64,000 nt of DNA from an uncultured Poribacteria bacterium (GCA_958295855.1 OY282383.1:252481-316480); one strand, 5' to 3'. Positions 12,073 through 27,755 are shown, counted from the stretch's first letter. The notes: generated by a model from the letters alone, not told the origin. A program made the numbers and translations.

Positions 12073-12101
12073 GACAAATTCTGCCATTCAATGTATACTT
12101 A
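12073..12101 (+). promoter_or_regulatory. sigma70-like promoter (ttgaca-17-tatact)
   Basis: ttgaca at 12073-12078 and tatact at 12096-12101, upstream of the 12148 CDS. Confidence 0.4.
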
Positions 12102-12147
12102 TAGAAAGTACAAATGGCTAACACGCATCCAATTAATAGGAATCAAA

Positions 12148-13374: not shown

Positions 13375-13415
13375 GGGTATTTTACCCCTGCTTTGTAGGG
13401 GAAACCGATACCACC

Positions 13416-14438: not shown

Positions 14439-14519
14439 ATATTCCGCAACAAGCGCGTTAATCTATTCGGGCGCGAGCCCTGTGCCTTGCACCACTCTCA
14501 AGCCTTTGCTGTCGATGCA

Positions 14520-14770
14520 AAAGAGAAACATCAGAAATCTCCGACGAGATCTTCCACTGCGTCACAACTACAGCAGAAACCACCAGAACTAGGCAAGAAC
14601 AAAAGTCTGAATCTCTGTGCTAATTGTCGCCGTTGGGTGCAGCTTCCCACGTTCATATTTTGACAAGGAAGGTTTTCGAAATACATCATCAGGAACCTCC
14701 GACGAGAGCTACCACAACGTCACAACCACAGCAGAAACCACCAGAACTAGGCAAGAACAAAAAATTTGAC
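14520..14770. repeat. two family A repeat copies
   Basis: atctccgacgagatcttccactgcgtcacaactacagcagaaaccaccagaactaggcaagaacaaaag at 14530-14600 and 14695-14762. Confidence 0.85.
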
Positions 14771-15111: not shown

Positions 15112-15398
15112 GATACTTCTCCTGATAACCTTGGGCGGATTGCTTGAATTTGACCGCGGAGCGAATGTGAGACATAAACTCCGCCTGTCTTGCAAGGAAT
15201 TTGGTGTTAGATATACGGTAAACATGAAAAGTGTAGGGGGAGCAAAGGTTTTGTTGTTCCCCCTACCTTTACTGTCTATTCTGTTAGCGTTTCATTGATT
15301 TTACTTGTGTCATTAGTAACCTGACAAATCTAGTTGTTCCTAGGACAGGCAGGTTCGCTAAAAACGACTCTTCCGACAACTTTGGACTAGCCAAATCG

Positions 15399-15980
15399 CT
15401 AAGATTCATCAGTTGTTACAAGCGCTAGTTTGATTAGAAAGGAGAGGACGCTTTCGATATCCTCTGGGCTCACGTCCCAACCATACTCTCCGGCAACCTG
15501 TCGCACCTCTCCTATTGTACTTTTCCCTCTCCAATTGACAATGTAGTGGACTTTTGCCGCGATGGAAAGCTTGTTAAAATCGTTAGAGATCTCCTGGGCG
15601 TTGAGGTTCTGAAGTGTTTTGTCCCATTTCCGGAAGTCAGGTTTTTGCTGGGTAGCCTCCCAGATGTTTTTAGCATCAGGGGTTAGAGAATAAGCGTGCC
15701 TGCGAATTTCTCCGAAAGCGTTTCGTTCAATTGAAGTGGAAGTAAAAGACTCCGTGACTTCATTGAGGACACCATAGTTTACTAGCCCATCTAGGTGCTC
15801 TGCAATGAAACTACTATAAGGTCCGTAATAGTGTGCGGAGAATCCAAAATTTTCTTTAAGCAAAACGCTGAGAAAATAGATTTTCTTTTGGAGGAGGGTT
15901 CTCCCCTGTAAACCTGTCTCTCCTTCCCTCGCAATAACAAGTAGAAGGACATCGACAATGTGCATGTTGTCTCCTTTCAT
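15399..15980 (-). CDS. Panacea-domain (DUF4065/GepA-like) protein, copy 1
   Basis: LLQKKIYFLSVLL...HYYGPYSSFIAEHLD fits the Panacea LQKLLYF...GPV core. The C-terminal 60 aa are nearly identical to the paralog at 22204-22785. The ~120-bp 3' flank (15301-15420) is also duplicated at 22120-22230. Confidence 0.55.
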   Translation of the reverse strand: MKGDNMHIVDVLLLVIAREGETGLQGRTLLQKKIYFLSVLLKENFGFSAHYYGPYSSFIAEHLDGLVNYGVLNEVTESFTSTSIERNAFGEIRRHAYSLTPDAKNIWEATQQKPDFRKWDKTLQNLNAQEISNDFNKLSIAAKVHYIVNWRGKSTIGEVRQVAGEYGWDVSPEDIESVLSFLIKLALVTTDES

Positions 15981-16162
15981 GAAGAACGCAAAATTTTCTG
16001 GATTTCGCTTTCCTCTTTTCCTGAGATTGTTTCGTACGGGGCATAGACTTGAATTGTCTCTAAAGCAGAGGTATCGGCGGAGTGTCTTACGAAAAACAGT
16101 TCACTTGCATAATCGCTCATAGCCCTTGGTTCCGACTGATTCTCGTCAAAAAGGGACAGCAT
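15977..16162 (-). pseudogene. remnant of HD-protein C-terminus (homologous to end of 22782-24179 gene)
   Basis: MLSLFDENQSEPRAMSDYASELFFVRHSADTSALETIQVY... aligns with ...ITIFDENQSEPRAMSDYASELFFARPATDNEASLETVQVY... at the C-terminus of the HD protein. No upstream HD body is present. Confidence 0.45.
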
Positions 16163-16316
16163 TTGTAGCGTATAGACACATACCTTCCCGCCTTAGTCCC
16201 ATAGGGACGGCATGTATATAGAAAACATTCGCTCCTCTTTTTAGCCCCGTAGGGGCGGCATGTATTGGAGGTTCAAACCTGAACATCATTTAGAAGCCAA
16301 AAATTTTACACATCCA

Positions 16317-17933
16317 TCACTCACCGAAGATGTCATCATGTAACTCCTCATAGACTGCCATACCAGGTTGAATGAGTGGGGCGAGAATATCTCTCATGAA
16401 ACTGTCTATGTTGTTTCCCATTCGTGATGGCTTGAAAGCCTCTCGCGCAGCGTGGTGGAGGTCTTGAACAATAGATTTCAGATCAGCGGCATCTTTGACA
16501 ACTTTACGCAATTCCTCAATCTTATCGGGCTTGTTTTCCTTTTCACCTAACTTAGTCAGCACCTCATCATCTATCAGGTAACTTTCAATTGTTCGCCGTG
16601 ACAAAGTGCGGATGCCTTTTTGGGCATACCTCTCTTTTGCCGAATCGGTTGCATAATCCCCGTCTCGGAGCCTGACGATTTTCGCCCTTTTCGCAATTGC
16701 CGTTATAACAGGAATCAGATTTGTGTCAGCGTTTTCTACATCTTTTCTGCCCCCGATGGAAACAAAAAGTGTTTCAGGGTGATGCTTCTCAAAAATCTGA
16801 TTATAGCACGCGGCATCAAAGCCTTCGGAAGCATCTTCGATTTTGCCTTCACAGAGAACAATCTGCTCGGGTACCACTAATTCGGAGAGGTCATCAAGGG
16901 TGACTTCATAGATGCGCGCCCAGAGATTTGAATCCGGCGGAGTGGGTATAAGCGTTACAGGTTCGTCGAAGTCGTGCCTATCAAAATTAAGGAAAACGAC
17001 AGATTTCGGACACTTTCGCCAGAGATCTTGCGCCTTGCGCACCATGCCAATGGAATGGGTCGCAATCCAAAGTTGGGACTTGTCAGGAATAAGGTTGTAA
17101 AGTTCCTCAAGGAGTTGTCCCTGAAGTTTCGTGTGCATGTGGGATTCAGGTTCGTCAATGCAAATGATGGTTTCGTCGTATTCAGCCTTTGTGACTATGA
17201 CATCCAGGAGCAGATCTAGTGCCGCCTTTTCCCCGCTGGCGAGATTCTGATATGAAAACCTCTCGCTTGTCCCTTTGTCAAATTGGAAGAATCCTCCGTC
17301 TGCCGGATGTCCCAAGTTCTTTAAAACCAATTTTGGGTCGTTGAATAGTCTACATATTGCGCCGCGGAGTTCGCCAAGAATCTCGTCTTGAAGCTCGGTT
17401 AAACTTTTCCCGTGTTGTCCGATTTCCGAACTACGCTCTAGCCATCGAGATGCTAACCTCCAATAATTTGATACAACAGCCTCATCATTTTCTATCAGGC
17501 TGACAAGCCGACGTTCCTTTAGTGGATTGTCCCTGTTGATGGTATGCGAATGAGTCATCGTATAGTTTCTGTAGGCGGAACGCGCGCTCACGCATTTGTC
17601 CCATTCATAGTCCGAGTACGGGTCTCCTCCGTGGAATTCTACATTTACGCAATCCGATATAAAACCACCTAAGAATCCAAGAAGGCTTTCTGATGGATAA
17701 TCACTAGATTTGACATAGTACTCCAAGATTTGGTAATAGTCATCCGATGTTTTAGTTTCATCTGTTGGAATGGGTGATAAATAGGTATAGAACTTCAGAC
17801 CCTCAAACACCGAGGACTTTCCGCATCCGTTGGGACCTATCATGACCACGAGCTTCGCCGTTTCAGGTAAGCCTTCAATAGTTAGGTCTGTGAAACGTTT
17901 GAAATTTTTCAGTTTAATCGATTTTATCTTCAT
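16317..17933 (-). CDS. OLD-family ATP-dependent endonuclease-like protein (ABC-type ATPase + C-terminal TOPRIM-like domain)
   Basis: Start at MKIKSIKLKNFKRFTDL. Walker A GPNGCGKSS, Walker B ICIDEPESHMH, then WIATHS. C-terminal VLCEGKIED...IGGRKD...RLRDGDY resembles the TOPRIM E / DxD motifs. The ORF's upstream 76 codons are repeat-derived. Confidence 0.7.
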   Translation of the reverse strand: MKIKSIKLKNFKRFTDLTIEGLPETAKLVVMIGPNGCGKSSVFEGLKFYTYLSPIPTDETKTSDDYYQILEYYVKSSDYPSESLLGFLGGFISDCVNVEFHGGDPYSDYEWDKCVSARSAYRNYTMTHSHTINRDNPLKERRLVSLIENDEAVVSNYWRLASRWLERSSEIGQHGKSLTELQDEILGELRGAICRLFNDPKLVLKNLGHPADGGFFQFDKGTSERFSYQNLASGEKAALDLLLDVIVTKAEYDETIICIDEPESHMHTKLQGQLLEELYNLIPDKSQLWIATHSIGMVRKAQDLWRKCPKSVVFLNFDRHDFDEPVTLIPTPPDSNLWARIYEVTLDDLSELVVPEQIVLCEGKIEDASEGFDAACYNQIFEKHHPETLFVSIGGRKDVENADTNLIPVITAIAKRAKIVRLRDGDYATDSAKERYAQKGIRTLSRRTIESYLIDDEVLTKLGEKENKPDKIEELRKVVKDAADLKSIVQDLHHAAREAFKPSRMGNNIDSFMRDILAPLIQPGMAVYEELHDDIFGE

Positions 17934-18270: not shown

Positions 18271-18323
18271 AAAAAAATAATCCGCGCTCGCAACTCAGAA
18301 ATAAGGAAAACGCGCGACTCCCA

Positions 18324-18354
18324 CACACCTACATCCCTGCATCCCGATACGTCC
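18324..18354. repeat. 31-bp direct repeat copy 1 (cacacctacatccctgcatcccgatacgtc)
   Basis: Second copy at 24334-24364 with 1 mismatch. The two copies flank the MTase + Panacea-2 + HD segment. Confidence 0.7.
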
Positions 18355-18360
18355 ACTTAA

Positions 18361-21300
18361 TTATCCCACAGTGTTTTTCTCTCCTTCCACGCCCATCACT
18401 TTTTCCACAATAGCAACTTCATCATCAGTTAATCCATAAAGCGCGTAAATCAACGCATCAATTTGCCGCTCATCCGCGGCGCTCTCTGCCTTCGGGTTTT
18501 CCCATTTCGCTGACAGAAGCTGTTCCACAAGTTCAATAATCGGTTGTTGCTGCTCAGGTGACACAAGCGGAATAGGTATTTTGCCAACATAGTAGTTATC
18601 AAAGTGCATCGTCATGAGTGCAGAGCAAAAGATAAACCGGTGGGCATACCAATTCACTAGCGTGGAGTTGAATAGGGCAGCAATAAAATTCAGGCTAAAA
18701 TTTGGATTCGTGAGAAACGTATTTTCGACAGTGTCAACTCCTAATATATCACCGGTTTTGTCAACGGTAGCCTTTATTTTTTTGTGCGTCACGATATTCT
18801 GAGAGAGGATTTTCGGCTGAAGTAGCGATTGAATTTTCTTATCGGCAGAATCAAGAGTGTCGCGGTTAGCAAACCCTCTCACACCATCAATTCCGTAGCG
18901 GCTTATATTTCTTCCACCAATCACTTTAATTGCACCAGTAGCGTTCAGGAATTTCTGTACCGACAAACCTCGTACACTCTGGGAAATTTCGCTTAGGTGC
19001 GTCCCGATACGATTTAGCTTTAAACCTAACTGAATTTCATCGCTGGACACATCGCATATCCATGCCTCAAACGTTTTCGGATAGTCTTTGGAAATCTGAG
19101 TCGTTTGGGTAAACGTATCATTGACAAACTTCCGAGCTGTATAGAAATCATTTTTAGACTGGGAACTGTAGACGAAAACAACCTGTTCCAATAAGACATT
19201 CTCAAAAGCCCGTTCAACATCAACGAGAACAATGGCTTTTTCTGACAAAGTGAAAGCTAAGCTCTGCCAAGTTTTAGAATACAATAAGGATTTGGGAACT
19301 ATAAATGCGAGGTTACCATCAGGTTTCATCAAATGATTTTTGGCATAATCAATAAACAGGGCGGCACTGTTTGAATTTCGGGTATCTTGAAGGTTGGCTT
19401 TAATCTGCGCTAGTTCAGCTTTCGGAATTTTAGCACCATAAGGGGGATTGCCGATGGCAATGTCAAACCCATCTTTCACACCGAACATCCACTCCGTGTC
19501 AAAGAAATCGGCGACAGCGTTCTGGTCATACGCATCCCAGGTGGCAATTTTCTGGGCCTCTCCAACACTCGCTTTTAACCTTTTCTCACGAACCGTGTAC
19601 GCCTTCTGAAGTTTTTCACGTAATTGATTGCGCGTCCGTTCTGTCTGCAGCTGAGCAACCTGTTCCGCTATCTTGTTTTGCTCACTCCCCACCCAGTGCA
19701 CATGCTGGGCTATCAATGCCTGCTTCAATTGTTCCCGAACGCCTGCCTCTTGGCGGATGTACCGGAGTTTTCGTTGCCGGGTGTTCGCGTTGAAATACCT
19801 CTGGCGGATAGCACCAATTTCAGCGCGTATCTGCCGAATGTTGTCGGTTTCAAGCAACAGCTGCTGGGCGTCTGTATTTAGCCCAATGAGGGTATTGGCA
19901 GCAACGAACTTCACTTCCAGATTGGGCAGCGGCCGAATGCCGTAGTTTGCCGCGCGGTTCTCGTTCGGCACCTGCTCAATGATGAGCGAGATGAAAAAGC
20001 GGAGTTTGGCAATCGTGACAGCGATGGGTTGAATGTCCACGCCATAAATGCCGTTTTGGATAAGGTAGAGCTTGCGTCCGTAGTCGTTGTAGCGGTTCGC
20101 TTCGGAGAACACCTGCTCGATACCCGCAAGTGCAGCTTCGCGGCTTTGCAGGTCAGGAATTGTTTCTGCCTGCTCGAGTTGTCGCTGTTTCCAGCGTTCA
20201 TTCTGCGGATCCAGTTTTTGGAGAATCAGCACCAGTTTATTGAGAATGCCCATCGGGAAAGCACCAGAACCGACTGCCGGATCGATGATTTTGAGTTCGT
20301 CTATCGCTTGAATCATTGACATGATTTCATCTTCATAGATGAGGTGTTTATTGGGATTATCTTCCGTACCTTGCCGGTCATAGGCAAGGAGATCTTCGCG
20401 GAGCCTGCCCTCCAAGCCCTCCCCGTGGCCGTCGGAGGGTTCAACCTTCTGAAGGAAATAGGCGATGAGCGCCTCGTCTACCATGTAATCAACTATCTGC
20501 CGTGGGGTATAGTAGGAGCCGGTGGCTTTGCGCGCGGTGGACTGTGTTTCCGGATTAGACGCGCCGAGCAGATTCTCAAACACCTGCCCGAGCAGTTCCG
20601 GGTCGAGGGCGACTTCTTGCTCAATGGGCGTGTTTTCCTCTACCGTGAACTTATAGCGGGAAAAGAGCGGAAAGATGCCGTTTTCTTCGTCAAAGAAGAG
20701 TTTTGTCGGGACGTGTAGTTTCCGCCTGTCGTTTGGATTGTCAGTGAAACAATCAACGCGCGCCCCACCATCACCGGGCGCCTCAAACGTATCCAGGCAG
20801 TCGAACAACCCGCCGTTAACAAACGGCACCTGCTTGAGGTACTCCAGAAATGCGTCTGCATCTTGGAGGAGATCCGCGTAGCGATATTTGCTCGCATCTC
20901 GATGATCTGGGTTATTGCGCCTACTAAAGACGCGTTCACTTATCGGCGTATTGAGGGTGGCAAAAAAGAGGTTTTGGAGGACAGCCTGGTAGTAATCGGA
21001 ACGCTCTTCGGTAGACGCGAGCTGCGCTCGCCACTTGTATGTTACCCCGCTTTGCGGGGAAGCATACCTGTCCCCGGTAGAACTGGCATGGGGCTCGCTA
21101 TCTCTCAGAAACGCTTGCGCGCCTTCTCTCTCAAAAAGTGCCGGAGGCACCAACCCCTTTTCCTTCAGAAACCAGATAAAGAGGAGCCGTGTTATCAGCC
21201 GGATGCCCTGCATCGCATTCGCTGCATCCGGAAATCTACAGGCCGCCTTTGCCCAATCATACCATTTCTCAAGGTCTCGGTAAAAACGGCGGTTGAGTGC

Positions 21301-21972
21301 CTCCGTATTGAGAATGCCCTCCCACACCTTATGGAGCGTATCAAAGTTATGAACGCCTTCGGTTTCAATCAGTCTATTGAGGTGGAGTTCGGCGAGGATG
21401 TCTAGATGCGCGCGGTGCGGGGAATTCAAGTTTATGTCTTTGATGAGCGTGACTTTCTCCAGCACCCGCTTTTCAGGCTCGCGTTTGTGCCTTCGCCGGT
21501 TGATAATCGCGAGGGTCAGAAAAGCACTAGACCGGAATATCACCATGATGGGCTGCGGGAGCTGTCTATTGATAAAGCGGGTAATGTCGGAGAGTTGTGT
21601 ACGTGTATAACTCCCCTCGGCAAGTTGCACGGCAACGAACATGTAGGAACGCATCAGTGTGTCGTCTATGTCCGTGCTCTCAAAGAGTGATTTCTGCTGA
21701 GTTATCTGCGCGTTAATCTCAGTATCCGTCACTTGCAAGACTAAGTAAAATGCCTGCCAGTCGTTAATGCGGAGTTTGTGAGAGGGGTTGGCGGTTTCTG
21801 CGGCAGCGGCCTTGAGGCGTTGGTACCTGTCGCTATCTATACCGTCGTTTCCGACCCTCCTGCTGTGGTAGCCGAGGGTGTTGAGGAACGCGGTGGCGGC
21901 TTCCCTGAGGGGTTGTTCATCGAAGTGCCGGAGGTTCGCCTCAATGTTATGTTTGATGGTGTCTGAATTCAT
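18361..21972 (-). CDS. large N6-adenine DNA methyltransferase, PglX/type IIG-like (NPPY motif)
   Basis: Motif I IIDPAVGSGAF and motif IV FDIAIGNPPYG, 1203 aa. ATG chosen at MNSDTIKHN (21972); the longer ORF would need a TTG at 22008. No recognisable nuclease motifs were seen by eye. Confidence 0.75.
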   Translation of the reverse strand: MNSDTIKHNIEANLRHFDEQPLREAATAFLNTLGYHSRRVGNDGIDSDRYQRLKAAAAETANPSHKLRINDWQAFYLVLQVTDTEINAQITQQKSLFESTDIDDTLMRSYMFVAVQLAEGSYTRTQLSDITRFINRQLPQPIMVIFRSSAFLTLAIINRRRHKREPEKRVLEKVTLIKDINLNSPHRAHLDILAELHLNRLIETEGVHNFDTLHKVWEGILNTEALNRRFYRDLEKWYDWAKAACRFPDAANAMQGIRLITRLLFIWFLKEKGLVPPALFEREGAQAFLRDSEPHASSTGDRYASPQSGVTYKWRAQLASTEERSDYYQAVLQNLFFATLNTPISERVFSRRNNPDHRDASKYRYADLLQDADAFLEYLKQVPFVNGGLFDCLDTFEAPGDGGARVDCFTDNPNDRRKLHVPTKLFFDEENGIFPLFSRYKFTVEENTPIEQEVALDPELLGQVFENLLGASNPETQSTARKATGSYYTPRQIVDYMVDEALIAYFLQKVEPSDGHGEGLEGRLREDLLAYDRQGTEDNPNKHLIYEDEIMSMIQAIDELKIIDPAVGSGAFPMGILNKLVLILQKLDPQNERWKQRQLEQAETIPDLQSREAALAGIEQVFSEANRYNDYGRKLYLIQNGIYGVDIQPIAVTIAKLRFFISLIIEQVPNENRAANYGIRPLPNLEVKFVAANTLIGLNTDAQQLLLETDNIRQIRAEIGAIRQRYFNANTRQRKLRYIRQEAGVREQLKQALIAQHVHWVGSEQNKIAEQVAQLQTERTRNQLREKLQKAYTVREKRLKASVGEAQKIATWDAYDQNAVADFFDTEWMFGVKDGFDIAIGNPPYGAKIPKAELAQIKANLQDTRNSNSAALFIDYAKNHLMKPDGNLAFIVPKSLLYSKTWQSLAFTLSEKAIVLVDVERAFENVLLEQVVFVYSSQSKNDFYTARKFVNDTFTQTTQISKDYPKTFEAWICDVSSDEIQLGLKLNRIGTHLSEISQSVRGLSVQKFLNATGAIKVIGGRNISRYGIDGVRGFANRDTLDSADKKIQSLLQPKILSQNIVTHKKIKATVDKTGDILGVDTVENTFLTNPNFSLNFIAALFNSTLVNWYAHRFIFCSALMTMHFDNYYVGKIPIPLVSPEQQQPIIELVEQLLSAKWENPKAESAADERQIDALIYALYGLTDDEVAIVEKVMGVEGEKNTVG

Positions 21973-22003
21973 GTCAGGCCTGCTTTTTCCACTAAAACGG
22001 AAA

Positions 22004-22118
22004 GGCAACTCCCCTACGATGAGCGTGCCATCAGGGCGGATGGCACGCTCATCGCCATCGTTGAGAGGCCGATTGTAATGTCAGATGAGACGGTGCGTGG
22101 GAAAAATCGGGTGCATGT
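22004..22118. repeat. 115-bp duplicate of the 3' end of the 10106-11821 gene (copy of 11698-11812)
   Basis: ggcaactcccctacgat...ggatggcacgctcatcgccatcgttgagaggccgattgtaatg.cagatgagacggtgcgtgggaaaaatcgggtgcatgt is ~94% identical between the two positions. Confidence 0.75.
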
Positions 22119-22203
22119 TTAGTAACCTGACAAATTTAGTTGTTTTAGGACAGGCAGGTTCGCTAAAAATGACTCTTCCGACAACTTTGGAGCGGCCAAA
22201 TCG

Positions 22204-22785
22204 CTAAGATTCATCAGTTGTTACAAGCTTTAGTTTGGTTAGAAAGGAGAGGACGCTTTCGATATCCTCTGGGCTCACGTCCCAACCATACTCTTCGGCA
22301 ACCTGTCGCACCTCTCCTATTGTACTTTTCCCTCTCCAATTGACAATGTAGTGGACTTTTGCCGCGATGGAAAGCTTGTTAAAATCGTTAGAGATAGGCT
22401 GGGCGTTAATCAACTCTAGTGCTGCTTTCCATTTTGGAAAATCCGGTTCTTCTTCGAGGTCACTCCATACCTCGCGGCCCCCCTCGGCCAGGGAGTAGGT
22501 GTGCCGGCGAATTTCGCCGAAAACATTTTGATCTTTTGAAGCTGTCGCGAAGGATTCTATCTTTTCATTAAGGAATCCATGGGCAACTAAACTATCTAGG
22601 TGCCCCGCAACCACGCTACTGTAAGGACCGTAGCGATGCGCGGTGAAGTCAAAATTAACTTCCATCAGCACAGATAGAAAGTAGACTTTTTTTTGGAGGA
22701 GCGTTCTCCCTCGTAGTTCGCCCCTGTCTTCGCTATTCACAACGAGTAGAAGAATGTCTATGGTGTACATTTCATTACCTTTCAA
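22204..22785 (-). CDS. Panacea-domain (DUF4065/GepA-like) protein, copy 2
   Basis: LLQKKVYFLSVLM...HRYGPYSSVVAGHLD. Its start overlaps the stop of the upstream HD gene (ATGA). Paralog of 15399-15980. Confidence 0.55.
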   Translation of the reverse strand: MKGNEMYTIDILLLVVNSEDRGELRGRTLLQKKVYFLSVLMEVNFDFTAHRYGPYSSVVAGHLDSLVAHGFLNEKIESFATASKDQNVFGEIRRHTYSLAEGGREVWSDLEEEPDFPKWKAALELINAQPISNDFNKLSIAAKVHYIVNWRGKSTIGEVRQVAEEYGWDVSPEDIESVLSFLTKLKLVTTDES

Positions 22786-24179
22786 GCAGAGCGTAAAATG
22801 TTTTGAATTTCCGGTTCAAGTGCCGAGCGCCTCTGTTTGCCCGATAGATTATTCCCATCTGGTGATACGTAAACTTGCACCGTTTCTAGAGAAGCTTCGT
22901 TGTCGGTGGCGGGTCTCGCGAAAAACAGTTCACTTGCATAATCGCTCATAGCCCTTGGTTCCGACTGATTCTCGTCAAAAATCGTAATCGCTTCCGCATC
23001 CAGGATGTAACTCCGGCTCCCGTAGTTTGGATTACGCATCTGAAGAGGCCTAATAATTACATAATCGGTATCACTACGGAGATGTGCTGCAATCTTTCGC
23101 TCCAATTCCTGTTTCAGAAGGGAATCATCTTTCATTGCAAGCAGCCTGCGTCTCACCTTGCTATTTGTTTCGTCTTTAAGCCGAAGTTCTGCAACCATTT
23201 TGAAGAGGTTTCGGTTGTAGAGCCTGTTGAAAATTTCACGTGCTTTCTCTTGGGGACAAGCTTTCAAAATATCAATCAGTTTCTCATCATGGTAGGTGAG
23301 ATAGTTTTGAATGAAGCTTTCAGGGTTTTCTTCACTGTATTGATAAAGTTTGGCCATTTGTGTATTGCCGCGCTCTATTGCAAGGGTAATCCCGCGGATA
23401 ATCATCTCATTGGAAATGAGGCTGACCCGGTGCCAATATACCTGCTGTGTCATGTGATATCGCGCAAGCAGGAGTTGTTCAAGGGCATAAATGCCTTTAC
23501 TGCTAACTGCTAGAGAGGTTTCTGTTTTGTCAACCTCAATAAGGCATGATTCAATCAGTTTTTCCAGATCGTATATCCCATATTTAACACCGGCGAAATA
23601 GGAATCGCGTAAGAGGTAGTCCATTTTATCCGCGTCTAATTCGCTAGAGACAATGTCACGCTGCCAGTCTTGTGTATCTTGCCCTTGAATCATGTCAGCT
23701 ACGAAATCCCGTTCATCCTTGTTCAGAATGCCGCGGATGGCCGAGTCAGTCTGAATAATATCTACAGTAATTTTCTCGTGTATCTTTTCGCGCGTAGATC
23801 CCATATCGGTTCGATCCGGCGCGTGCTCATCCAACAAGTACTCCGAAACGTGACTAAATGGCCCGTGCCCAACATCATGAAGTAACGCCGCAAGTCTAAC
23901 CCGCTCTACGTCTTCATTGCATATTCTCGTTGGATGCAATTCTTGGAGCTTTGTGCAAATTCGGCCCGCGATGTGCATCACACCAATTGAATGATCGAAG
24001 CGCGTATGTAACGCCCCCGGATACACCAAAAACGTCATCCCCAACTGCCGAATTCGACGGAGCCGCTGAAACACCGGGGTGTTAATCAGTTTCATTTCCT
24101 TTTCAGAAACTTTGATAAACCCGTGAATCGGGTCGCGCATTTCATGGGAACGTTCTATCATATTAAAATTATACCACAA
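22782..24179 (-). CDS. HD-domain dNTP triphosphohydrolase-like protein (dGTPase/SAMHD1 family)
   Basis: RFDHSIGVMHIAG, LLHDVGHGPFSH and ELDADKMDYLLRDSYFAGV match the H..HD..D and DxDRxDYLxRD signatures of dNTPases. Confidence 0.7.
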   Translation of the reverse strand: MWYNFNMIERSHEMRDPIHGFIKVSEKEMKLINTPVFQRLRRIRQLGMTFLVYPGALHTRFDHSIGVMHIAGRICTKLQELHPTRICNEDVERVRLAALLHDVGHGPFSHVSEYLLDEHAPDRTDMGSTREKIHEKITVDIIQTDSAIRGILNKDERDFVADMIQGQDTQDWQRDIVSSELDADKMDYLLRDSYFAGVKYGIYDLEKLIESCLIEVDKTETSLAVSSKGIYALEQLLLARYHMTQQVYWHRVSLISNEMIIRGITLAIERGNTQMAKLYQYSEENPESFIQNYLTYHDEKLIDILKACPQEKAREIFNRLYNRNLFKMVAELRLKDETNSKVRRRLLAMKDDSLLKQELERKIAAHLRSDTDYVIIRPLQMRNPNYGSRSYILDAEAITIFDENQSEPRAMSDYASELFFARPATDNEASLETVQVYVSPDGNNLSGKQRRSALEPEIQNILRSA

Positions 24180-24333
24180 TATGTTAAGTAATGCAAATTA
24201 AAAATTGAGTAAACTTATGATGATTTTTCACCCTTCACACTGATATTCCCACATTCTAACCTGCCATCTCCACATAAAAGTCTTGCATAATGTCTGAAAT
24301 CAATCAAGGAAAAGCAAATCTTTGATCTGCCCT

Positions 24334-24364
24334 CACACCTACATCCCTGCATCCCGATCCGTCT
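24334..24364. repeat. 31-bp direct repeat copy 2
   Basis: cacacctacatccctgcatcccgatccgtc; see 18324-18354. Confidence 0.7.
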
Positions 24365-24452
24365 GCGCTATCAACGCAATCTCTTCCTCCGACACCGGTG
24401 TGCCGGAGACATCGCCCCACGCCGCGCAAAGTGACACCGAACCCACGTTTTA

Positions 24453-27400
24453 TTAAGATTCGGCAGCGTTATTAAACCCGCGGCTGATAACCAGCCATGT
24501 AATCAGTTCAAATTGAGTCTCTTCCGTGATTTGGTTTTCGGCAATCGGGAGCAGGAAATCCGCACTTGCCTCCAGCTGATCGTTGACTTTCCGATTGTAC
24601 GCTTGGCGAATTGAATCCATCGCGGCATCAATTAGCCTCTCATAAAGCCTCATATCGCTGCCGTTGGCAGTCTCCTCGTTAAACCAGTGACACAGGTTTT
24701 GATTGGGAGTAGTTTTCCCGACACAGAGCGCGCTGAATCGTTCTAAAATCTGTTTCGGATTGGTGAAACCGAGAGAGACTGCACCTTTATCGCTGATATG
24801 GACGAGGTAGTAGGGATAAATCGGATTGAGCTTCTCTCCATCTTCATTCTCCTTCGCCTCGCCGGTTTGTCTTAGACAGAAGATAACGCCCGGTTCAATA
24901 TTTACGGGGGCACCGTCGTGCTTCTGAGGCGCGGTAACAGCGTATAAGCCGAGGGGTGCGTTTCGGAGTTCCACCTCGTTGCTGCGGAGATAGTTAAGGA
25001 GTTGTACGCGGAAATCGCCAAGCGTGAATTGGTTGAGATTCAATTGTGCTTCAATATCTTCAAACTCAAGGATTTCGCTCTGCATGCGGCGCAGCTGCGC
25101 GTCCCGGTGCGTCCAAACCTGCTCCATGCTCTTTTTCTCTTTCAATGAAAGCAGAGCGTCATCACCTGTAGCAGTGAGATTGACGAGTGCCATTCGTGCC
25201 TCAACGCGAGGTTTGAGATTGATATACTCGTCGAGTTCAGGTGTGGGCCAGAAGTTGACAAGCTGGATGTTCTCGTTACGGCTCCCAATCCGGTCAATTC
25301 GTCCGAAACGTTGGATAATGCGGACAGGGTTCCAGTGGATATCGTAATTGACGAGATAACCGCAATCCTGCAGGTTTTGTCCTTCGGAGATACAATCGGT
25401 GGCGATGAGGAGATCGATTTCGGGGGTGGCATGTTTCCCCTGCTTTGTAGGGGTATCAAGATGGGTTCTATCCTTGGAGATTGGGGAGAAATTGGTGAGA
25501 ATCTCGTTGAAATCATTTCTTCCAAGCGTGGTGCTGTTGGCACTGCCTGTGACGACAGCACAGTGAATGTTAAGCGTCTCGGTTGCCCACGCGTGCAAAT
25601 TATCGTAGAGATAATTGGCAGTATCCGCAAAAGCGGTAAAAACGAGAATTTTGCGATTCTCTTTTCCGCATCGGTTTGTTGTGGGGTGCTGCACCTTGGC
25701 AGCGATGAGCCGTTTGAGTTCCTCCAATTTTGCATCCCGGTCGGGTGTCATGTTTTTCGCGATGCTGTAAATTTTCTCCAATTGCACCTTGTCGTCTCGG
25801 AGGTCGGCTAACCAAGCGTCCAGATCGAGGTGTTTATACTGATACACCTCATCTTTCCCTGCTTGTATACCGGTCTGGAGTTCGTCGTCTTCTCCATATT
25901 CTTCGGTTGCCTCGGCAAACGCATCGAAACCACTTTCATGAACCGTTCCCGCGTGTGCGTTCACAAAGTCGCCAATTTCAGACTCACGCGCTTTAATATT
26001 TTCAATAGTGCGTTCCAGCGTCGTTGCAAAGGAGTAGACGCTACTTTCAAGCCGTTTGAGGAAGTTCACCTTCATCATACCGATGAGATTGAACTCGCGC
26101 TGTTGGAGGAGTCTACCGCCATAATGGTGTTGGCACGCTTGTCGGATATATTTTGACGGATTAAAAAGTGAGAGTTTATAGCCATCAATTTGATTGCTGA
26201 TCGCTTGGTAGGTGGGGAATTGCCCTTGCCTGTCAATTTCTGGAAAGATAGACTTTGGAGTCTCATGCTCTGGAAACCCACCGATCTGTTCCATAGAATC
26301 GCTATAGAAGTTCTGAATATGTGTACGGGAACGGGCAATAGTGAGCCGGTCCAAGAGCGAAAAGAAGTCCGCACTGAGGCTTTCCGAAAGATTTTCTTGC
26401 CTTCTTGATTTATCGGGGAGCGGCTCAGTTTCTGTTGTCCATGTCTCAAAATTGCTTTGGGCAGTCTTAAGCGTTGCTCTGATGCTTGGGATACCGGTCC
26501 CTTTAAAGGCATCGTCTTTGTCTTCGGTGATTAAAGAGATTTGGTTCTCCAGATCGGTGAGTCGATTGTTGACTGGGGTGGCAGAGAGCATAAGCACTTG
26601 GGTTTTGCATCCACTCTGGATAATGTCTTCCATTAATTTATTATAACGAGCACCGCGGTTTCGGAAGTTGTGGGATTCATCAATGACGACAAGATCGTAC
26701 CCGTCCCATTCATGATGTGCAAGGTCAATGCCGTTGGATTCACCGCTGTCCCGGCTCAAATCCGTGTGTGCCAGCACAGCATAACGGAACTGATCGGCTT
26801 TCAGTGGATTATTTTTATTGCGAGATTGTGTATGATAAAGCGTCCAGTTTCTTTCCAACTTCTTAGGACACAGCACTAAGACGCGGTAATTTCGCAACTC
26901 AAAGTATTTGATAATAGCGAGTGCCTCGTAGGTTTTGCCTAACCCAACGCTATCAGCGATGATACAACCTTTGTATGCCTTCAGTTTCTGGATACACGCC
27001 TGAACACCGTGTTTTTGAAAGGCGTAGAGTTTCTGCCAGATTTCAGTTTCCTGAAACCGGGGATTTGCTTCGACAAAGGGTGTGTCGTTTGCGTCTGTCA
27101 AGAAATTTTCAAAAAGGTGGTAGAGGGTTTTGTAGTAGATGAATTCGGGGGCTTTGTCTTGATAGGCATTTTCGAGGGTTCGCAGCACCTGTCGTTTTAC
27201 ATCTTCAACCTCGTCGGATTCCCAAAGGTTATCAAACCACGTTTTCAGGTCAGCGCAGTCGCTTTTGCTGTCGACTTCAAGGTTGAGTTCAATATTGCTC
27301 GCCTTTTCGCTTAACCCCAAGCCGCGTACGGTAAAGTTAGCACTCCCGATGAGCGCATCCTCACCGCCGGCCTTCTCAATATAATACATCTTTCCGTGCA

Positions 27401-27755
27401 GGAAATTAGAACGGCGCACCGAGCGGAGCTCCACTTTCTCTTCAATCCAGGCGGCACATGCCTTGGCGAGCTCGCTTTGGGGGAGGTAGTTCTCAAGGCT
27501 TAATCCCGCTTCAGTCAACGCAAACGCCTTGCCCTCCGTTTTTTGCGGGTCCATTCCGCCGATGAAACTCGGTTCACCGAACAGAAAACGGAGGTTATCA
27601 ATGCCAGTCAGCGACTCTTTGAGGGCGTTAAAGGCGTAAATGGTGAAATAGGCGGAGACGATGGAGAGGGAAGCACCCTCTTGGATTTTCTCTCGCAGAA
27701 AATCGGCGACGGTGCCGTACATGCTGTTATCTCGGATGCGGGAGTGTTGGGACAT
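24453..27755 (-). CDS. PLD-family nuclease / SNF2-family helicase fusion protein
   Basis: N-terminal HKD-like motif FLHGKMYYIEKAGGEDALIGSANFTVRG. SNF2 motifs CIIADSVGLGKT (I), VIDESHNFRN (II) and HWNPVRIIQRFGRIDRIGS (VI). A family B hairpin encodes LDTPTKQGKH in frame (25425-25454). Confidence 0.8.
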   Translation of the reverse strand: MSQHSRIRDNSMYGTVADFLREKIQEGASLSIVSAYFTIYAFNALKESLTGIDNLRFLFGEPSFIGGMDPQKTEGKAFALTEAGLSLENYLPQSELAKACAAWIEEKVELRSVRRSNFLHGKMYYIEKAGGEDALIGSANFTVRGLGLSEKASNIELNLEVDSKSDCADLKTWFDNLWESDEVEDVKRQVLRTLENAYQDKAPEFIYYKTLYHLFENFLTDANDTPFVEANPRFQETEIWQKLYAFQKHGVQACIQKLKAYKGCIIADSVGLGKTYEALAIIKYFELRNYRVLVLCPKKLERNWTLYHTQSRNKNNPLKADQFRYAVLAHTDLSRDSGESNGIDLAHHEWDGYDLVVIDESHNFRNRGARYNKLMEDIIQSGCKTQVLMLSATPVNNRLTDLENQISLITEDKDDAFKGTGIPSIRATLKTAQSNFETWTTETEPLPDKSRRQENLSESLSADFFSLLDRLTIARSRTHIQNFYSDSMEQIGGFPEHETPKSIFPEIDRQGQFPTYQAISNQIDGYKLSLFNPSKYIRQACQHHYGGRLLQQREFNLIGMMKVNFLKRLESSVYSFATTLERTIENIKARESEIGDFVNAHAGTVHESGFDAFAEATEEYGEDDELQTGIQAGKDEVYQYKHLDLDAWLADLRDDKVQLEKIYSIAKNMTPDRDAKLEELKRLIAAKVQHPTTNRCGKENRKILVFTAFADTANYLYDNLHAWATETLNIHCAVVTGSANSTTLGRNDFNEILTNFSPISKDRTHLDTPTKQGKHATPEIDLLIATDCISEGQNLQDCGYLVNYDIHWNPVRIIQRFGRIDRIGSRNENIQLVNFWPTPELDEYINLKPRVEARMALVNLTATGDDALLSLKEKKSMEQVWTHRDAQLRRMQSEILEFEDIEAQLNLNQFTLGDFRVQLLNYLRSNEVELRNAPLGLYAVTAPQKHDGAPVNIEPGVIFCLRQTGEAKENEDGEKLNPIYPYYLVHISDKGAVSLGFTNPKQILERFSALCVGKTTPNQNLCHWFNEETANGSDMRLYERLIDAAMDSIRQAYNRKVNDQLEASADFLLPIAENQITEETQFELITWLVISRGFNNAAES

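Follow-up and report, generated by a model that had tools for sequence, protein, structure and literature searches.

Organization of the locus

We analyzed a window of 64,000 nucleotides from an uncultured Poribacteria bacterium (GCA_958295855.1 OY282383.1:252481-316480). Only two ORFs longer than 700 aa were found in the whole 64 kb. One codes for a PLD (HKD) nuclease fused to an SNF2 ATPase, hereafter the helicase, and the other for an N6-adenine methylase (Table 1). An earlier note on this DNA had described an 1100-aa fusion and a 1203-aa methylase in the same orientation; both, with all the motifs cited there, were confirmed by ORF analysis, Pfam and direct reading. The methylase ORF spans 18361..22008 (-) and encodes 1215 aa from a TTG start, and in the source genome it is called from Met13 (nt 21972), at 1203 aa. 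Helicase and methylase genes are not neighbours in the window: 2.4 kb with an HD gene and a 193-aa gene lie between them. Together with an ABC ATPase gene and a second 193-aa gene, all six genes are located on one strand. The earlier note did not mention four of them (the HD gene, both 193-aa genes and the ABC-ATPase-Toprim gene), the DUF4391 domain of the methylase, or how common the family is. Its statement that DrmA/DrmB and PglZ/BrxC are missing nearby held for the whole window, and Pfam, PADLOC and NCBIfam scans of the neighbours gave no match to these or to DUF499.

Table 1. Genes, domains, motifs and repeats of the locus (window coordinates)
Feature	Position	Strand	Basis
PLD(HKD)-nuclease/SNF2 ATPase fusion (helicase), 1100 aa	24453..27755	-	ORF, source-genome gene call
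PLD catalytic motif H120-x-K122...G137-S-A-N140-F-T142	27330..27398	-	Sequence reading
SNF2 ATPase core, about aa 240-860	25176..27038	-	Motif location
Walker A GLGKT, aa 271-275	26931-26945	-	Sequence reading
DESH, aa 359-362	26670-26681	-	Sequence reading
Motif VI QRFGRIDRIG, aa 815-824	25284-25313	-	Sequence reading
Helicase C-terminal region, aa 861-1100, without recognised domain	24456..25175	-	Pfam
34-nt element, copy 1, directly 3' of helicase stop codon	24330..24363		Repeat search, alignment
HD gene (embedded gene 1), SAMHD1/dGTPase-like phosphohydrolase	22782..24161, ORF to 24179	-	Pfam, PADLOC, source gene call
193-aa gene, first copy (embedded gene 2)	22204..22785	-	ORF; PADLOC/NCBIfam
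DUF4391/MmeI-like gamma-class N6-adenine methylase with C-terminal TRD, 1203 aa	18361..21972	-	Pfam, homology
N-terminal DUF4391-related domain, aa 1-205	21358..21972	-	PF14335, AF2 model
Helical spacer, aa 206-560	20293..21357	-	MmeI_hel in homologues, AF2 model
Methyltransferase catalytic region	19123..20292	-	Pfam, motifs
Motif I DPAVGSG, aa 564-570 (1203-aa numbering)	20263-20283	-	Sequence reading
NPPY, aa 842-845 (1203-aa numbering)	19438-19449	-	Sequence reading
Target recognition domain (TRD), TaqI_C-like	18364..19122	-	Pfam TaqI_C, ORF residues 1029-1146
34-nt element, copy 2, directly 3' of methylase stop codon	18320..18353		Repeat search, alignment
ABC ATPase with OLD/AriB-like Toprim C-terminus, 538 aa	16317..17933	-	Pfam, PADLOC, source gene call
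HD-gene 3'-end remnant, non-coding, upstream of second 193-aa gene	16063..16152		Direct repeat, alignment
193-aa gene, second copy	15399..15980	-	Paralogue of first copy

Predicted restriction and modification subunits

The helicase matched Pfam families PLDc_2 (43.5 bits), SNF2-rel_dom (49.2 bits), Helicase_C (47.8 bits) and RE_NgoFVII (32.4 bits), the last being a PLD family of restriction endonucleases. Its match to the PADLOC model C3a139 'HKD+Snf2' was full-length (412.7 bits, residues 102-1056 aligned to model positions 95-922 of 948). Besides the motifs in Table 1, HGKMYYIE (120-127), GSAN (137-140) and SATP (391-394) were read from the sequence. All of these motifs are invariant among close homologues, and K274, D359, E360, H362, Q815, R819 and R822 are invariant in 80/80 family members. 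The C-terminal 240 residues had no Pfam match and their AF2 model was of poor quality; a reader domain could be located here. PLD-helicases in the PDB sequence set showed no detectable sequence match to this protein, which is predicted to be the motor-nuclease (restriction) subunit.

The methylase matched Eco57I (73.7 bits), TaqI_C (33.3 bits) and N6_Mtase in Pfam, and its motif I and NPPY are parted by an insertion of ~270 aa. Among 43 family members D564, G568 and N842-P-P are invariant and Y845 is present in 42, with W in the remaining one. The N-terminus was matched by PF14335 (DUF4391) at E=1.6e-4, with a score of 22.1 bits that is below the Pfam gathering score of 29.9, and 27 of the 42 homologues also matched this family (best 5e-7). 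Comparing a profile with a single sequence gave a weak result (hhalign probability 3.9%). The domain was modelled by AF2 with a pLDDT of 81; no solved structural relative, (D/E)xK motif or REase fold was found for it. Judged from these searches, the N-terminus is a DUF4391 domain and not a nuclease, and it occupies the position of the nuclease in Type IIL/IIG enzymes. The earlier impression of a methylase with no obvious nuclease was borne out, and a solitary Type IIG enzyme with an intact nuclease domain, which would have spoken against a two-component system, is not what this polypeptide encodes.

The spacer is mostly helical in the AF2 model, and the corresponding region matched MmeI_hel in 11/42 homologues. 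The TRD is the most divergent part of the methylase (mean pairwise identity 0.23); for example, identity to one related methylase is 66% as far as aa ~845 and drops to ~31% beyond it. Such diversification is as expected for a specificity module, consistent with the predicted role of the methylase as modification and specificity subunit.

Conservation of the gene pair

A pattern search of GTDB species genomes identified at least 595 relatives (from 600 matches listed). Synteny was assessed in the best 80 of these loci and 2 others, and 77 of the 82 were informative. Among these best loci, 69/77 had a homologous DUF4391-methylase downstream of the helicase on the same strand, in many phyla, and the window methylase is homologous to these 69 over its full length. 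Helicase and methylase form a conserved operon: the gap is below 150 nt in 34 loci and 0-20 nt in many, and it holds embedded genes in 31. The closest relative among the matches listed, with a helicase 78% identical to ours, has the two genes 14 nt apart. Two loci (L008 and L009) had no methylase downstream. Clustering of ORFs in the 10-kb flanks of the 82 related loci revealed no other universal partner.

Given that the methylase follows on the same strand in 69/77 informative loci, the pair is, on comparative grounds, a conserved two-component module and not a remnant. The recurrence of the pairing in other genomes, which the earlier note had proposed to survey, favours its two-component reading over a remnant. 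A decayed or reduced DISARM class 1, BREX or BR type 2/MANTIS locus, from which DrmA/B, PglZ/BrxC, or the DUF499 ATPase together with DUF3780 would have disappeared, is extremely unlikely. Weak HMM similarities to DrmD (127-151 bits), DrmMI (55 bits) and PglX (27-52 bits) can be cited for it, as can the N-terminal HKD-Swi2/Snf2 helicase and N6-methylase of BR type 2 (PMC12839542). However, every HMM score was far under its curated cut-off, no partner gene was present in the window or recurrent in the flanks of the 82 related loci (DrmA/B and pglZ/brxC included), the pair is closely spaced and has been conserved across phyla, and neither gene of the window is decayed.

Divergence of the helicase correlated with that of the DUF4391 domain (r=0.71), weakly with that of the catalytic region (0.19) and not with that of the TRD (0.03). 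Among helicase segments, the C-terminal region (aa 861-1100) tracked DUF4391 divergence best (r=0.72). The correlation falls with distance from the helicase gene, so plain genetic linkage and recombination could explain this co-divergence.

The two-gene arrangement occurs commonly in public genomes and is annotated there, with PGAP naming its products helicase-related protein, DUF4391 domain-containing protein and N-6 DNA methylase. It is mentioned in passing in the literature without characterization (Milman et al. 2023, PMC9881135, Table 3), and our literature search found no experimental work on the HKD-SNF2 plus DUF4391-methylase family. By its gene content and conservation, the system appears to be an intact member of a widespread, uncharacterized two-gene R-M-like defence family.

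Type III-linked relatives and loss of the nuclease site

In 6 genome loci and 3 plasmids, a standalone DUF4391 gene directly follows the helicase gene and is followed by a Type III Mod gene and usually Res. True Mod/Res genes were present only in distant relatives of the window system. In the window, too, DUF4391 follows the helicase in the same orientation, with two embedded genes intervening. Across the loci compared, DUF4391 is the constant partner of the helicase, either fused to a gamma-class methylase or standalone before Type III Mod and Res.

The PLD site differs between these groups. H120, K122 and N140 are intact in 72/72 length-checked locus helicases paired with a fused DUF4391-methylase, and the PLD residues are degenerate in 9/9 Type III-linked helicases (H replaced by Q, N or D in 8/9, K lost in 9/9). 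The latter relatives carry or carried their own Res nuclease gene, and loss of the PLD site complements the presence of this nuclease.

This complementarity bears on whether the two proteins are merely neighbours, with the methylase a self-sufficient Type IIG/IIL enzyme, the label that REBASE and HMMs of the PADLOC kind would give it, and the PLD-SNF2 protein a separate stand-alone defence nuclease. The best PADLOC matches of the methylase were indeed REase_MTase_IIG models (186 bits), related Type II restriction-modification enzymes homologous to Cj0031 have been treated as Type IIG (PMC9881135, PMC5608340), and PLD-helicase defence proteins can stand alone (NCBIfam NF042964; SauUSI). However, the IIG models align to the methylase only downstream of their nuclease segment, its N-terminus is DUF4391 without (D/E)xK or REase fold, and the helicase scored 149 bits against NF042964, for which the cut-off is 1100. 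Same-strand adjacency in 69/77 loci, often with a gap of 0-20 nt, is unlike chance, and the PLD site decays exactly in loci with a Res nuclease. We consider independent function very improbable.

Retention of the ATPase and loss of the nuclease in Type III-linked helicases also suggest that the ancestral or general role of the helicase may differ from cleavage and may be, e.g., remodelling, loading or sensing. The same observation, that a role conserved in proteins without an active nuclease (by degenerate motif) is not cleavage, would fit a PLD-SNF2 effector that depends on modification (Type IV-like, SauUSI-type) or acts in some other way without the methylase, the latter being kept for another purpose, e.g., to mark self DNA against another nuclease or for epigenetic phase variation. 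SauUSI is a Type IV enzyme with an identical N-terminal PLD plus SF2 layout (cited in bioRxiv 10.64898/2026.09.23.753747), and the 240 uncharacterized C-terminal residues could serve as reader. On the other hand, Pfam, PADLOC and NCBIfam revealed no modified-base reader domain (SRA, EVE, YTH or ASCH), the strict link to a methylase whose TRD diversifies fast is a classical R-M signature, and a Type IV enzyme coupled to an m6A-making host methylase risks self-attack. Methylase-independent action is thus improbable.

Additional genes of the locus

The HD gene product (459 aa in the source call) matched Pfam HD (52.7 bits) and HD_assoc_2 (71.8 bits) and PADLOC dGTPase (41.6 bits). Its stop codon is overlapped by 4 nt by the first 193-aa gene, and in two unrelated metagenome contigs an HD homologue (45% identity) immediately precedes a homologue of this 193-aa gene. 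The first 193-aa protein is weakly similar to the C-terminal (DarT-binding) region of DarG (PADLOC DarG, E=2e-7; NCBIfam antitoxin_DarG, E=1.7e-4); no Pfam match was found for either copy at E<=0.01, or for the first at E<=1. The two copies share 68% aa identity overall and are near-identical over the final ~65 residues and over ~95 nt of the 3' flank. The HD remnant is a direct repeat, 89% identical to 22892-22981 inside the intact HD gene. The two copies of the 34-nt element are 94% identical, and the one following the methylase overlaps a terminator-like hairpin. The ABC ATPase matched AAA_15/AAA_21 in Pfam and AriAB (97 bits over 295-573), AriA, Old and PtuA in PADLOC, and signatures LCEG and RDGDY were read from its translation.

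In relatives, embedded genes code for Schlafen AlbA_2+HATPase_c_4, DUF1016/YhcG, Fic and OLD proteins, which are the usual R-M/BREX-embedded families and match the 'embedded defence' pattern (bioRxiv 10.1101/2024.01.29.577857). The intergenic and downstream positions are an insertion hotspot, and the HD plus 193-aa pair and the ABC-ATPase-Toprim gene plus 193-aa paralogue are most likely independent back-up defence cassettes.

A functional unit larger than two genes, as in the multi-ATPase systems MANTIS and MADS, to which the ABC ATPase, possibly along with the 193-aa proteins, would belong as an integral third component, is unlikely, but it has several points in its favour. In 8 further loci, which belong to different phyla, the gene immediately following the methylase in the same orientation codes for an ABC ATPase, the Enterobacter plasmid version contains an embedded OLD-like ATPase, and methylase loading in MANTIS requires a second ATPase (bioRxiv 10.64898/2026.09.23.753747). 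Such an ATPase is nevertheless absent from most loci; the window ATPase and the 8-locus family share the P-loop region only, i.e., they are different families; and OLD/PARIS-type ATPases function as stand-alone systems. In addition, the window ATPase is flanked by the 34-nt element and 3' cassette ends like those of the HD cassette, which argues for its arrival as a separate cassette.

Proposed function

We assign a probability of roughly two in three (0.65) to a reading of the core as an ATP-dependent, R-M-like system of two genes, with specificity and self-marking provided by the methylase and cleavage by the PLD-SNF2 protein. Neither protein is truncated, and every catalytic motif is present and conserved. 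Points against this reading are the 2.4 kb between the two genes in the window, the DUF4391 score below the gathering threshold and the two loci that have no downstream methylase. By analogy with Type IIG/IIL enzymes, BREX PglX and Type III Mod, the methylase would recognize a short, probably asymmetric site and methylate host DNA. DUF4391 may be an adaptor that couples the methylase to the PLD-SNF2 protein through physical contact. With one HKD motif per protomer, a dimer is needed to form one PLD active site, and the PLD-SNF2 protein would be expected to dimerize. PLD active sites are built by dimerization in Nuc and BfiI. MtsD, the PLD-SF2 effector of MANTIS, is dimeric, with BfiI described by comparison (bioRxiv 10.64898/2026.09.23.753747). 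When bound to its site on foreign DNA that is unmethylated, the methylase would allow the PLD-SNF2 dimer to translocate or remodel at the expense of ATP and to cleave the DNA. Recognition with its hemimethylation logic, DUF4391-helicase contact and cleavage are inferred. There are analogues in the literature: in MANTIS/Gao_RL, a dimeric PLD-SF2 effector acts downstream of site recognition by the methylase (same preprint), and Pin17FIII, a 'Type IIG' enzyme of Bacteroidota that has an SNF2 helicase encoded upstream and that we cite as an analogue, alone methylates the asymmetric GGYGAB (PMC5608340).

Comparison with known systems

On the best reading, the system resembles MANTIS or Type III in its working and is a member of neither, nor of DISARM or BREX. 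DISARM has a PLD nuclease, an SNF2 helicase and a large Eco57I-like adenine methylase, and BREX a PglX-like methylase, but DrmA/DrmB and PglZ/BrxC of DISARM class 1 and BREX are absent from the window and its relatives. The PLD domain characteristic of DrmC is present but fused to SNF2 and not separate. DrmA (large helicase) and DrmB (DUF1998) had no match in the cluster or its neighbours, and PglZ and BrxC had none in the window and were not recurrent in the flanks. As a candidate DrmD, the helicase scored 151 and 106 bits against NCBIfam NF038317/NF038318, with cut-offs of 610 and 950, and as a candidate BREX-1 PglX the methylase scored 52.4 bits against BREX_1_MTaseX (NCBIfam, cut-off 500). 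The DISARM-like or BREX-like label of the earlier note is therefore not retained as a statement of membership.

Hma/Type-1 BR also combines an SNF2 helicase-nuclease fusion with a methylase and is a hotspot of embedded defence genes, but it includes a DUF499 ATPase, and its helicase bears a PD-(D/E)xK nuclease at the C-terminus. The window helicase matched the PADLOC HmaA model only partially (83 bits, 547-826), with no DUF499.

Type III R-M systems (EcoP15I Mod/Res) likewise consist of two genes for a TRD-carrying methylase and a helicase-nuclease subunit, and relatives of our helicase and DUF4391 are attached to bona fide Type III Mod/Res operons. However, Mod is a beta-class methylase (N6_N4_Mtase) and Res a ResIII helicase with a C-terminal PD-(D/E)xK nuclease, whereas the window pair has an Eco57I-type gamma-class methylase and an SNF2 protein with an N-terminal PLD nuclease, and we do not classify it as Type III.

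A nuclease coupled to an SF2 motor is also found in Type ISP enzymes (LlaGI/LlaBIII), SauUSI, CglI/NgoAVII and PbeA, and in the last three the nuclease is of the PLD type, as in the window protein with its RE_NgoFVII match. Differences are that each Type ISP enzyme is one polypeptide with a nuclease of the Mrr type, SauUSI lacks a methylase and depends on modification, CglI/NgoAVII have PLD nuclease and ATPase as two separate proteins, and phosphorothioation and a CxC ABC ATPase are linked to Pbe.

MANTIS/Gao_RL (Type-2 DUF499-centred BREX-related, MtsA-D) shares an N-terminal HKD/PLD plus SF2 Swi2/Snf2-type ATPase effector with a catalytic His at nearly the same position (H122 in MtsD, H120 in the window helicase), one PLD motif per protomer, implying a dimer with a single active site, and an N6-adenine methylase whose own TRD supplies site recognition. 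The BR type 2/MANTIS pairing of HKD-SF2/Snf2 effector and N6-adenine methylase is thus present in the window. In contrast, the system lacks the DUF499 AAA+ loader (MtsA; no Pfam match anywhere, the sole ATPase in the cluster besides the helicase being the ABC-type AAA_15/AAA_21 protein) and DUF3780 (MtsB; not among the Pfam matches of the two 193-aa proteins), and its methylase is an MmeI/Eco57I-like gamma-class enzyme with a DUF4391 domain.

Type IIL/IIG enzymes (MmeI, Eco57I, Cj0031, DrdV) share the MmeI_hel-like spacer, a gamma-class methylase with NPPY and the TaqI_C-like TRD, in the same order of motif I, NPPY and C-terminal TRD. The window methylase is not assigned to this type, having no PD-(D/E)xK nuclease in the same polypeptide: DUF4391 replaces the N-terminal PD-(D/E)xK domain and the predicted nuclease is in trans on the motor protein, so cleavage would be ATP-dependent. 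Better comparators than DISARM and BREX are MmeI-type Type IIL/IIG enzymes, with DUF4391 in place of the cis nuclease, and the PLD-SF2 effectors of MANTIS/Gao_RL, Pbe and SauUSI.

Gene content of the locus

Both proteins described in the earlier note are encoded by genuine open reading frames (ORFs), and the PLD, SNF2 and methylase motifs it cites are all there, as judged by Pfam matches and motif reading. In the helicase, we read H120-G-K122...G137-S-A-N140, GLGKT (271-275), DESH (359-362) and QRFGRIDRIG (815-824) from the sequence; the methylase matched the Eco57I, TaqI_C and N6_Mtase families and contains DPAVGSG (564-570) and NPPY (842-845). ORF reading placed the two genes in a set of six with the same orientation, which spans 15.4 to 27.8 kb of the window on the minus strand. 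The remaining four (HD, ABC ATPase and two 193-aa genes) were absent from the earlier note. G+C content was 0.45-0.49 over 15-28 kb versus 0.53-0.56 in the flanks, consistent with an acquired island. The window encodes no DrmA/B, PglZ, BrxC or DUF499 protein (HMM scans of neighbours were negative), and no ORF there exceeds 700 aa except for helicase and methylase; ORF sizes and scans thus bear out the previously reported absence of the DISARM partners DrmA/DrmB and the BREX partners PglZ/BrxC.

Features of the gene cluster and its surroundings, in window coordinates
Feature	Position (nt)	Strand	Remarks
Schlafen AlbA_2 + HATPase_c_4 protein	12091-13374	+	just beyond cluster
ParA-like AAA_31 ATPase	13416-14438	+	follows Schlafen gene, just beyond cluster
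Two 76-nt direct repeats	14529-14604 and 14687-14762		91% identical, 158 nt apart
Second 193-aa gene	15399..15980	-	downstream of methylase
ABC ATPase with OLD/AriB-like Toprim end	16317..17933	-	downstream of methylase
Mosaic duplication	15295-16230 vs 22100-23050		193-aa gene twice, 68% aa identity
34-nt element	18320-18353 and 24330-24363		94% identical; immediately after methylase and helicase stop codons
Methylase ORF	18361..22008	-	source genome call from Met13 = 1203 aa
First 193-aa gene	22204..22785	-	between helicase and methylase
HD/HD_assoc_2 phosphohydrolase	22782..24161/24179	-	between helicase and methylase
Helicase	24453..27755	-	1100 aa; Pfam PLDc_2, RE_NgoFVII, SNF2-rel_dom, Helicase_C
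330-aa protein	34036-35028	+	PADLOC PDC-S11, 90 bits; weak SduA_C/NucS_C nuclease domains
TPR-repeat protein	45662-46834	-	multiple overlapping tblastn matches to TPR part of L001/L002 TIR-TPR proteins

An AF2 model of the 1100-aa helicase, built with 40 homologues of 69-86% identity, had a pLDDT of 49, too poor for a fold search or for comparison with SauUSI or MtsD (the PLD-SF2 effector of MANTIS/Gao_RL). Sequence searches of the PDB with the helicase, using both the single sequence and a profile, returned generic SNF2/DEAD proteins only, and those with the methylase gave no match.

Conservation of the helicase-methylase pair

The helicase belongs to a large family, with at least 8000 database matches, many of them at 67-86% identity. 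Pattern scanning of a single genome for each GTDB species confirmed at least 595 relatives (595 of the 600 matches listed), and we examined the loci of the best 80 of these, together with two obtained by exact look-ups. In five of the 82 loci the sequence ended too near the helicase to be informative. A methylase was present directly downstream, on the same strand, in 69 of the 77 informative loci, and all 69 were homologous to the methylase of the window across the N-terminal, middle and catalytic regions. The survey of adjacency proposed in the earlier note therefore upholds its label of a two-component methylation/restriction system; its alternative, a remnant, is excluded, since the pair is intact here and kept in relatives.

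The gap between the two genes was shorter than 150 nt in 34 loci (0-20 nt in many) and longer than 400 nt in 31, where it contained one to three genes, nearly always on the same strand. In the nearest relative among the matches listed (L003, Candidatus Poribacteria, 78% identity) the gap is 14 nt, which makes the 2.4-kb insertion in the window a recent event. Clustering of flanking ORFs of at least 200 aa in the examined loci identified helicase and methylase as the only universal genes, and no recurrent ORF of DrmA, BrxC or PglZ size was found among them. The family is very common but uncharacterised, and the present locus is one of its ordinary, intact members.

Two Candidatus Poribacteria loci (L008 and L009) showed a homologous methylase ~5.7 kb upstream of the helicase and none downstream, and the PLD motif of L009 has K122 changed to R. 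These loci could be rearranged, or the methylase could be part of another system truncated where the locus sequence ends.

DUF4391 domain of the methylase

The best matches of the methylase were PADLOC Type IIG models, with an alignment that begins only at residue ~385 (model position ~311), beyond the nuclease segment of the model. The earlier observation that the methylase has no obvious nuclease held: its N-terminus is a DUF4391 domain, and not a single (D/E)xK tripeptide occurs in the first 330 residues. PF14335 (DUF4391) matched the window domain with E=1.6e-4 and 27 of 42 methylase homologues (best 5e-7), with no competing family, and MmeI_hel matched the middle region in 11 of the 42. 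When the N-terminal alignment was compared by hhalign with a single standalone DUF4391 sequence, the match was weak (probability 3.9%), so the assignment rests on Pfam matches across homologues and on synteny. From the missing nuclease segment, the lack of (D/E)xK and the DUF4391 match, we infer an MmeI-type IIL/IIG enzyme in which DUF4391 replaces the cis nuclease.

In pairwise comparisons of 43 loci, helicase identity correlated with identity of the DUF4391 domain of the methylase (r=0.71), whereas the correlation was weak for the spacer (0.28) and catalytic region (0.19) and absent for the TRD (0.03). The TRD is also the most divergent part of the methylase; the methylase of L002, a Poribacteria-like locus, is 66% identical to that of the window up to aa ~845 and ~31% identical thereafter. 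This co-divergence fits a role of DUF4391 as helicase-facing adaptor, with specificity parts freely swapped; however, linkage alone could explain it, given that the correlation falls with DNA distance.

No TRD shufflon was detected, and no inverted repeats of at least 30 nt occur in 14-29 kb of the window. On the Lactococcus cremoris plasmid pJM1F (L090, 1692-10185), helicase and N-6 methylase precede an inverted gene fragment with a TaqI_C domain and an invertase of the Mpi family, an arrangement that resembles a TRD shufflon serving a related system. In another related locus (L081), a 466-aa ORF directly after the helicase (13267-14667) is an odd additional DUF4391-like fusion, in which sigma-70 region 1.2/2 domains accompany a faint match to DUF4391; next come a Schlafen gene, a 339-aa ORF and the DUF4391-methylase, in that order.

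Type III-linked relatives and the PLD site

Six informative genome loci lack a fused methylase (L070, L072, L073, L074, L077 and L079), Clostridium carboxidivorans P7 and Salirhabdus euzebyi among them. In all six, the gene immediately following the helicase encodes a standalone DUF4391 protein (PF14335 E=2.8e-62 in L077); next come a Type III Mod (N6_N4_Mtase) and, where the sequence extends, Res (ResIII + RE_endonuc). The same four-gene layout is annotated on Desulforapulum, Acinetobacter and Enterobacter plasmids, where PGAP calls the products 'helicase-related protein', 'DUF4391 domain-containing protein', 'site-specific DNA-methyltransferase' and 'DEAD/DEAH box helicase'. Fused or standalone, DUF4391 is the invariant partner of the helicase.

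Residues were compared in 80 family helicases of at least 950 aa, and the ATPase motifs were invariant in all 80. H120, K122 and N140 were intact in each of the 72 helicases of this set paired with a fused DUF4391-methylase, whereas PLD residues were degenerate in 9/9 Type III-linked helicases (the six genome loci and three plasmids, L086-L088). Replacements in the six genome loci were H to Q, N or D, K to R or S, and N to D or P. Thus, the PLD site persists exactly in those operons that lack another nuclease and is lost beside Res. Judged from these residues, the split is our strongest evidence that the PLD domain would be the working nuclease of the two-gene form (helicase plus fused DUF4391-methylase), and it implies that the Type III-linked helicase may be a nuclease-dead SNF2 accessory of Type III restriction-modification (R-M).

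Embedded and neighbouring genes

Schlafen AlbA_2+HATPase_c_4 proteins were found in 11 of the 31 long helicase-methylase gaps of relatives and DUF1016/YhcG nucleases in seven; Fic, Bro-N and REP-type transposase families also recurred. In addition, an ABC ATPase follows the methylase in eight loci, and the Enterobacter plasmid version has an embedded OLD-family nuclease. Such embedding has been described in Hma, BREX, DISARM and Type I systems (bioRxiv 10.1101/2024.01.29.577857), and the present locus represents 'embedded defence' in one further host system.

The gene for the HD protein (~460 aa) is translationally coupled to one for a ~190-aa protein that resembles the C-terminal region of DarG, and this pairing is conserved. 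The HD protein contains HD...DADKMDYLLRD, which we take to be a SAMHD1/dGTPase-type signature. The pair recurs in unrelated metagenome contigs with 45% identity (L083, 37-1984; L084, 743-2678), and a metagenome scan for the 193-aa protein gave three loci only. PADLOC has no specific model for this pair, a candidate two-gene defence cassette that possibly acts via dNTP depletion.

The mosaic duplication includes tracts near 100% identical (one of ~65 nt, one of ~300 nt), which suggests gene conversion. Copies of the 193-aa gene are near-identical over their final ~200 nt and for ~95 nt past the gene end, and a ~200-nt non-coding remnant of the HD gene 3' end precedes the second copy. Both 34-nt elements sit at the 5' edge of inserted cassettes, and the methylase copy overlaps a terminator-like hairpin; this element may be a cassette boundary mark or a recombination site. 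The simplest reading would be two related cassettes with common ends, one inserted after each core gene, the second having had its HD gene replaced by the ATPase-Toprim gene. Toprim signatures 'LCEG' and 'RDGDY' were identified in the 538-aa ABC ATPase (AAA_15/AAA_21), whose best PADLOC match is the fused PARIS protein AriAB (97 bits); a longer 614-aa ORF with a 76-aa N-terminal extension is unused by the source annotation.

The Schlafen protein just beyond the cluster is of the same family as those embedded in the related loci. The 76-nt repeats fall within non-coding DNA that separates the ParA-like gene from the defence cluster, and each starts with a minus-strand terminator-like hairpin. 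The 330-aa protein, 6 kb from the cluster, is a candidate further defence gene. TIR-domain proteins occur downstream of the methylase, in operon orientation, in L001 (18274-19989) and L002 (19588-21399), the two closest Poribacteria-like loci, as TIR+TPR proteins of ~570-600 aa, and in L089 (10906-11823), as an annotated TIR protein of a Parabacteroides plasmid. Likeness of the TPR-repeat protein in the window to the L001/L002 proteins is best read as repeat similarity only.

Proposed mechanism and implications

Nuc and BfiI have one HKD motif per chain and form the active site by dimerisation. Because the helicase has one HKD motif per chain, a dimer would be needed for its active site. MtsD is reported to dimerise likewise (bioRxiv 10.64898/2026.09.23.753747). 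For a family in which domain content, operon conservation and nuclease complementarity are direct observations, we propose that the methylase TRD would read a short, probably asymmetric site and the methylase would mark host DNA; on unmodified DNA, it would license through DUF4391 a PLD-SNF2 dimer, which would spend ATP on translocation or remodelling and then cut.

A more far-reaching reading, tentative and with a probability of about 40%, is that HKD-SNF2 and DUF4391 constitute a portable module, docked by DUF4391 on unrelated methylase/specificity subunits (MmeI-like here, Type III Mod elsewhere), that the two-gene form is a distinct minimal ATP-dependent R-M class, and that the nuclease-dead SNF2 is an accessory remodeller of the Type III enzyme. 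As part of the same reading, the two-gene form would in effect be a Type IIL enzyme in which an adaptor recruiting a dimeric PLD-SNF2 translocase has taken the place of the cis nuclease, with no need of a DUF499/BrxC-type loader. We know of no R-M system for which an accessory remodeller of a classical Type III enzyme has been described.

If the proposed model holds, thousands of database 'Type IIG' methylases would be specificity subunits of a two-protein ATP-dependent system, the R-M/defence content of genomes would be counted differently, and DUF4391 would have a function. The family would also offer a simpler model than MANTIS, BREX or DISARM for methylase licensing of a motor-nuclease, namely how a site-bound, probably hemimethylating methylase does so with two proteins and no loader ATPase. 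PLD-site decay in Type III-linked relatives serves as a natural experiment pointing to the cutting subunit. Interest lies in the family and not in this locus: in its nuclease-less Type IIL-like methylase, the DUF4391 adaptor hypothesis and the natural complementarity test that singles out the PLD domain as the nuclease.

Comparison with known systems

The DISARM-like or BREX-like assignment of the earlier note pointed to the wrong family. Both memberships were rejected on the missing partners and on scores (DrmD, 151 bits versus a cut-off of 610; PglX, 52 versus 500). Type III membership was rejected on methylase class and nuclease type, and Type IIG/IIL membership on the methylase being without a cis nuclease. 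The best HMM for the helicase was PADLOC C3a139 'HKD+Snf2' (412.7 bits), a model that goes back to a catalogue of genes found close to type III CRISPR loci and not to any defined system (PMC6546367).

The helicase-methylase arrangement has been seen earlier, without analysis (PMC9881135 Table 3; likened by description). Also likened by description, Pin17FIII of Prevotella intermedia is a 1117-aa 'Type IIG' enzyme with an SNF2 helicase upstream, and it methylates GGYGAB when expressed alone (PMC5608340). The same tight pair is annotated as 'SNF2-related protein' and 'N-6 DNA methylase' on a Parabacteroides plasmid. Our literature search yielded no experimental work on the two-gene system and, for DUF4391, passing mentions in two papers only.

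Hma (BR type 1) requires DUF499 and a C-terminal PD-(D/E)xK nuclease; membership was rejected, as DUF499 is missing and the score is sub-threshold. For MANTIS/BR type 2, the defining components are a DUF499 ATPase and a DUF3780 protein (PMC12839542); neither is present here, and membership was likewise rejected, with sub-threshold scores. Mechanistically, MANTIS/Gao_RL is nevertheless the nearest precedent: site recognition by a methylase complex precedes the action of its dimeric PLD-SF2 effector, inverted site pairs are preferred and host DNA is hemimethylated (bioRxiv 10.64898/2026.09.23.753747). The two-gene system would belong among ATP-dependent R-M-like systems with a PLD-SF2 effector.
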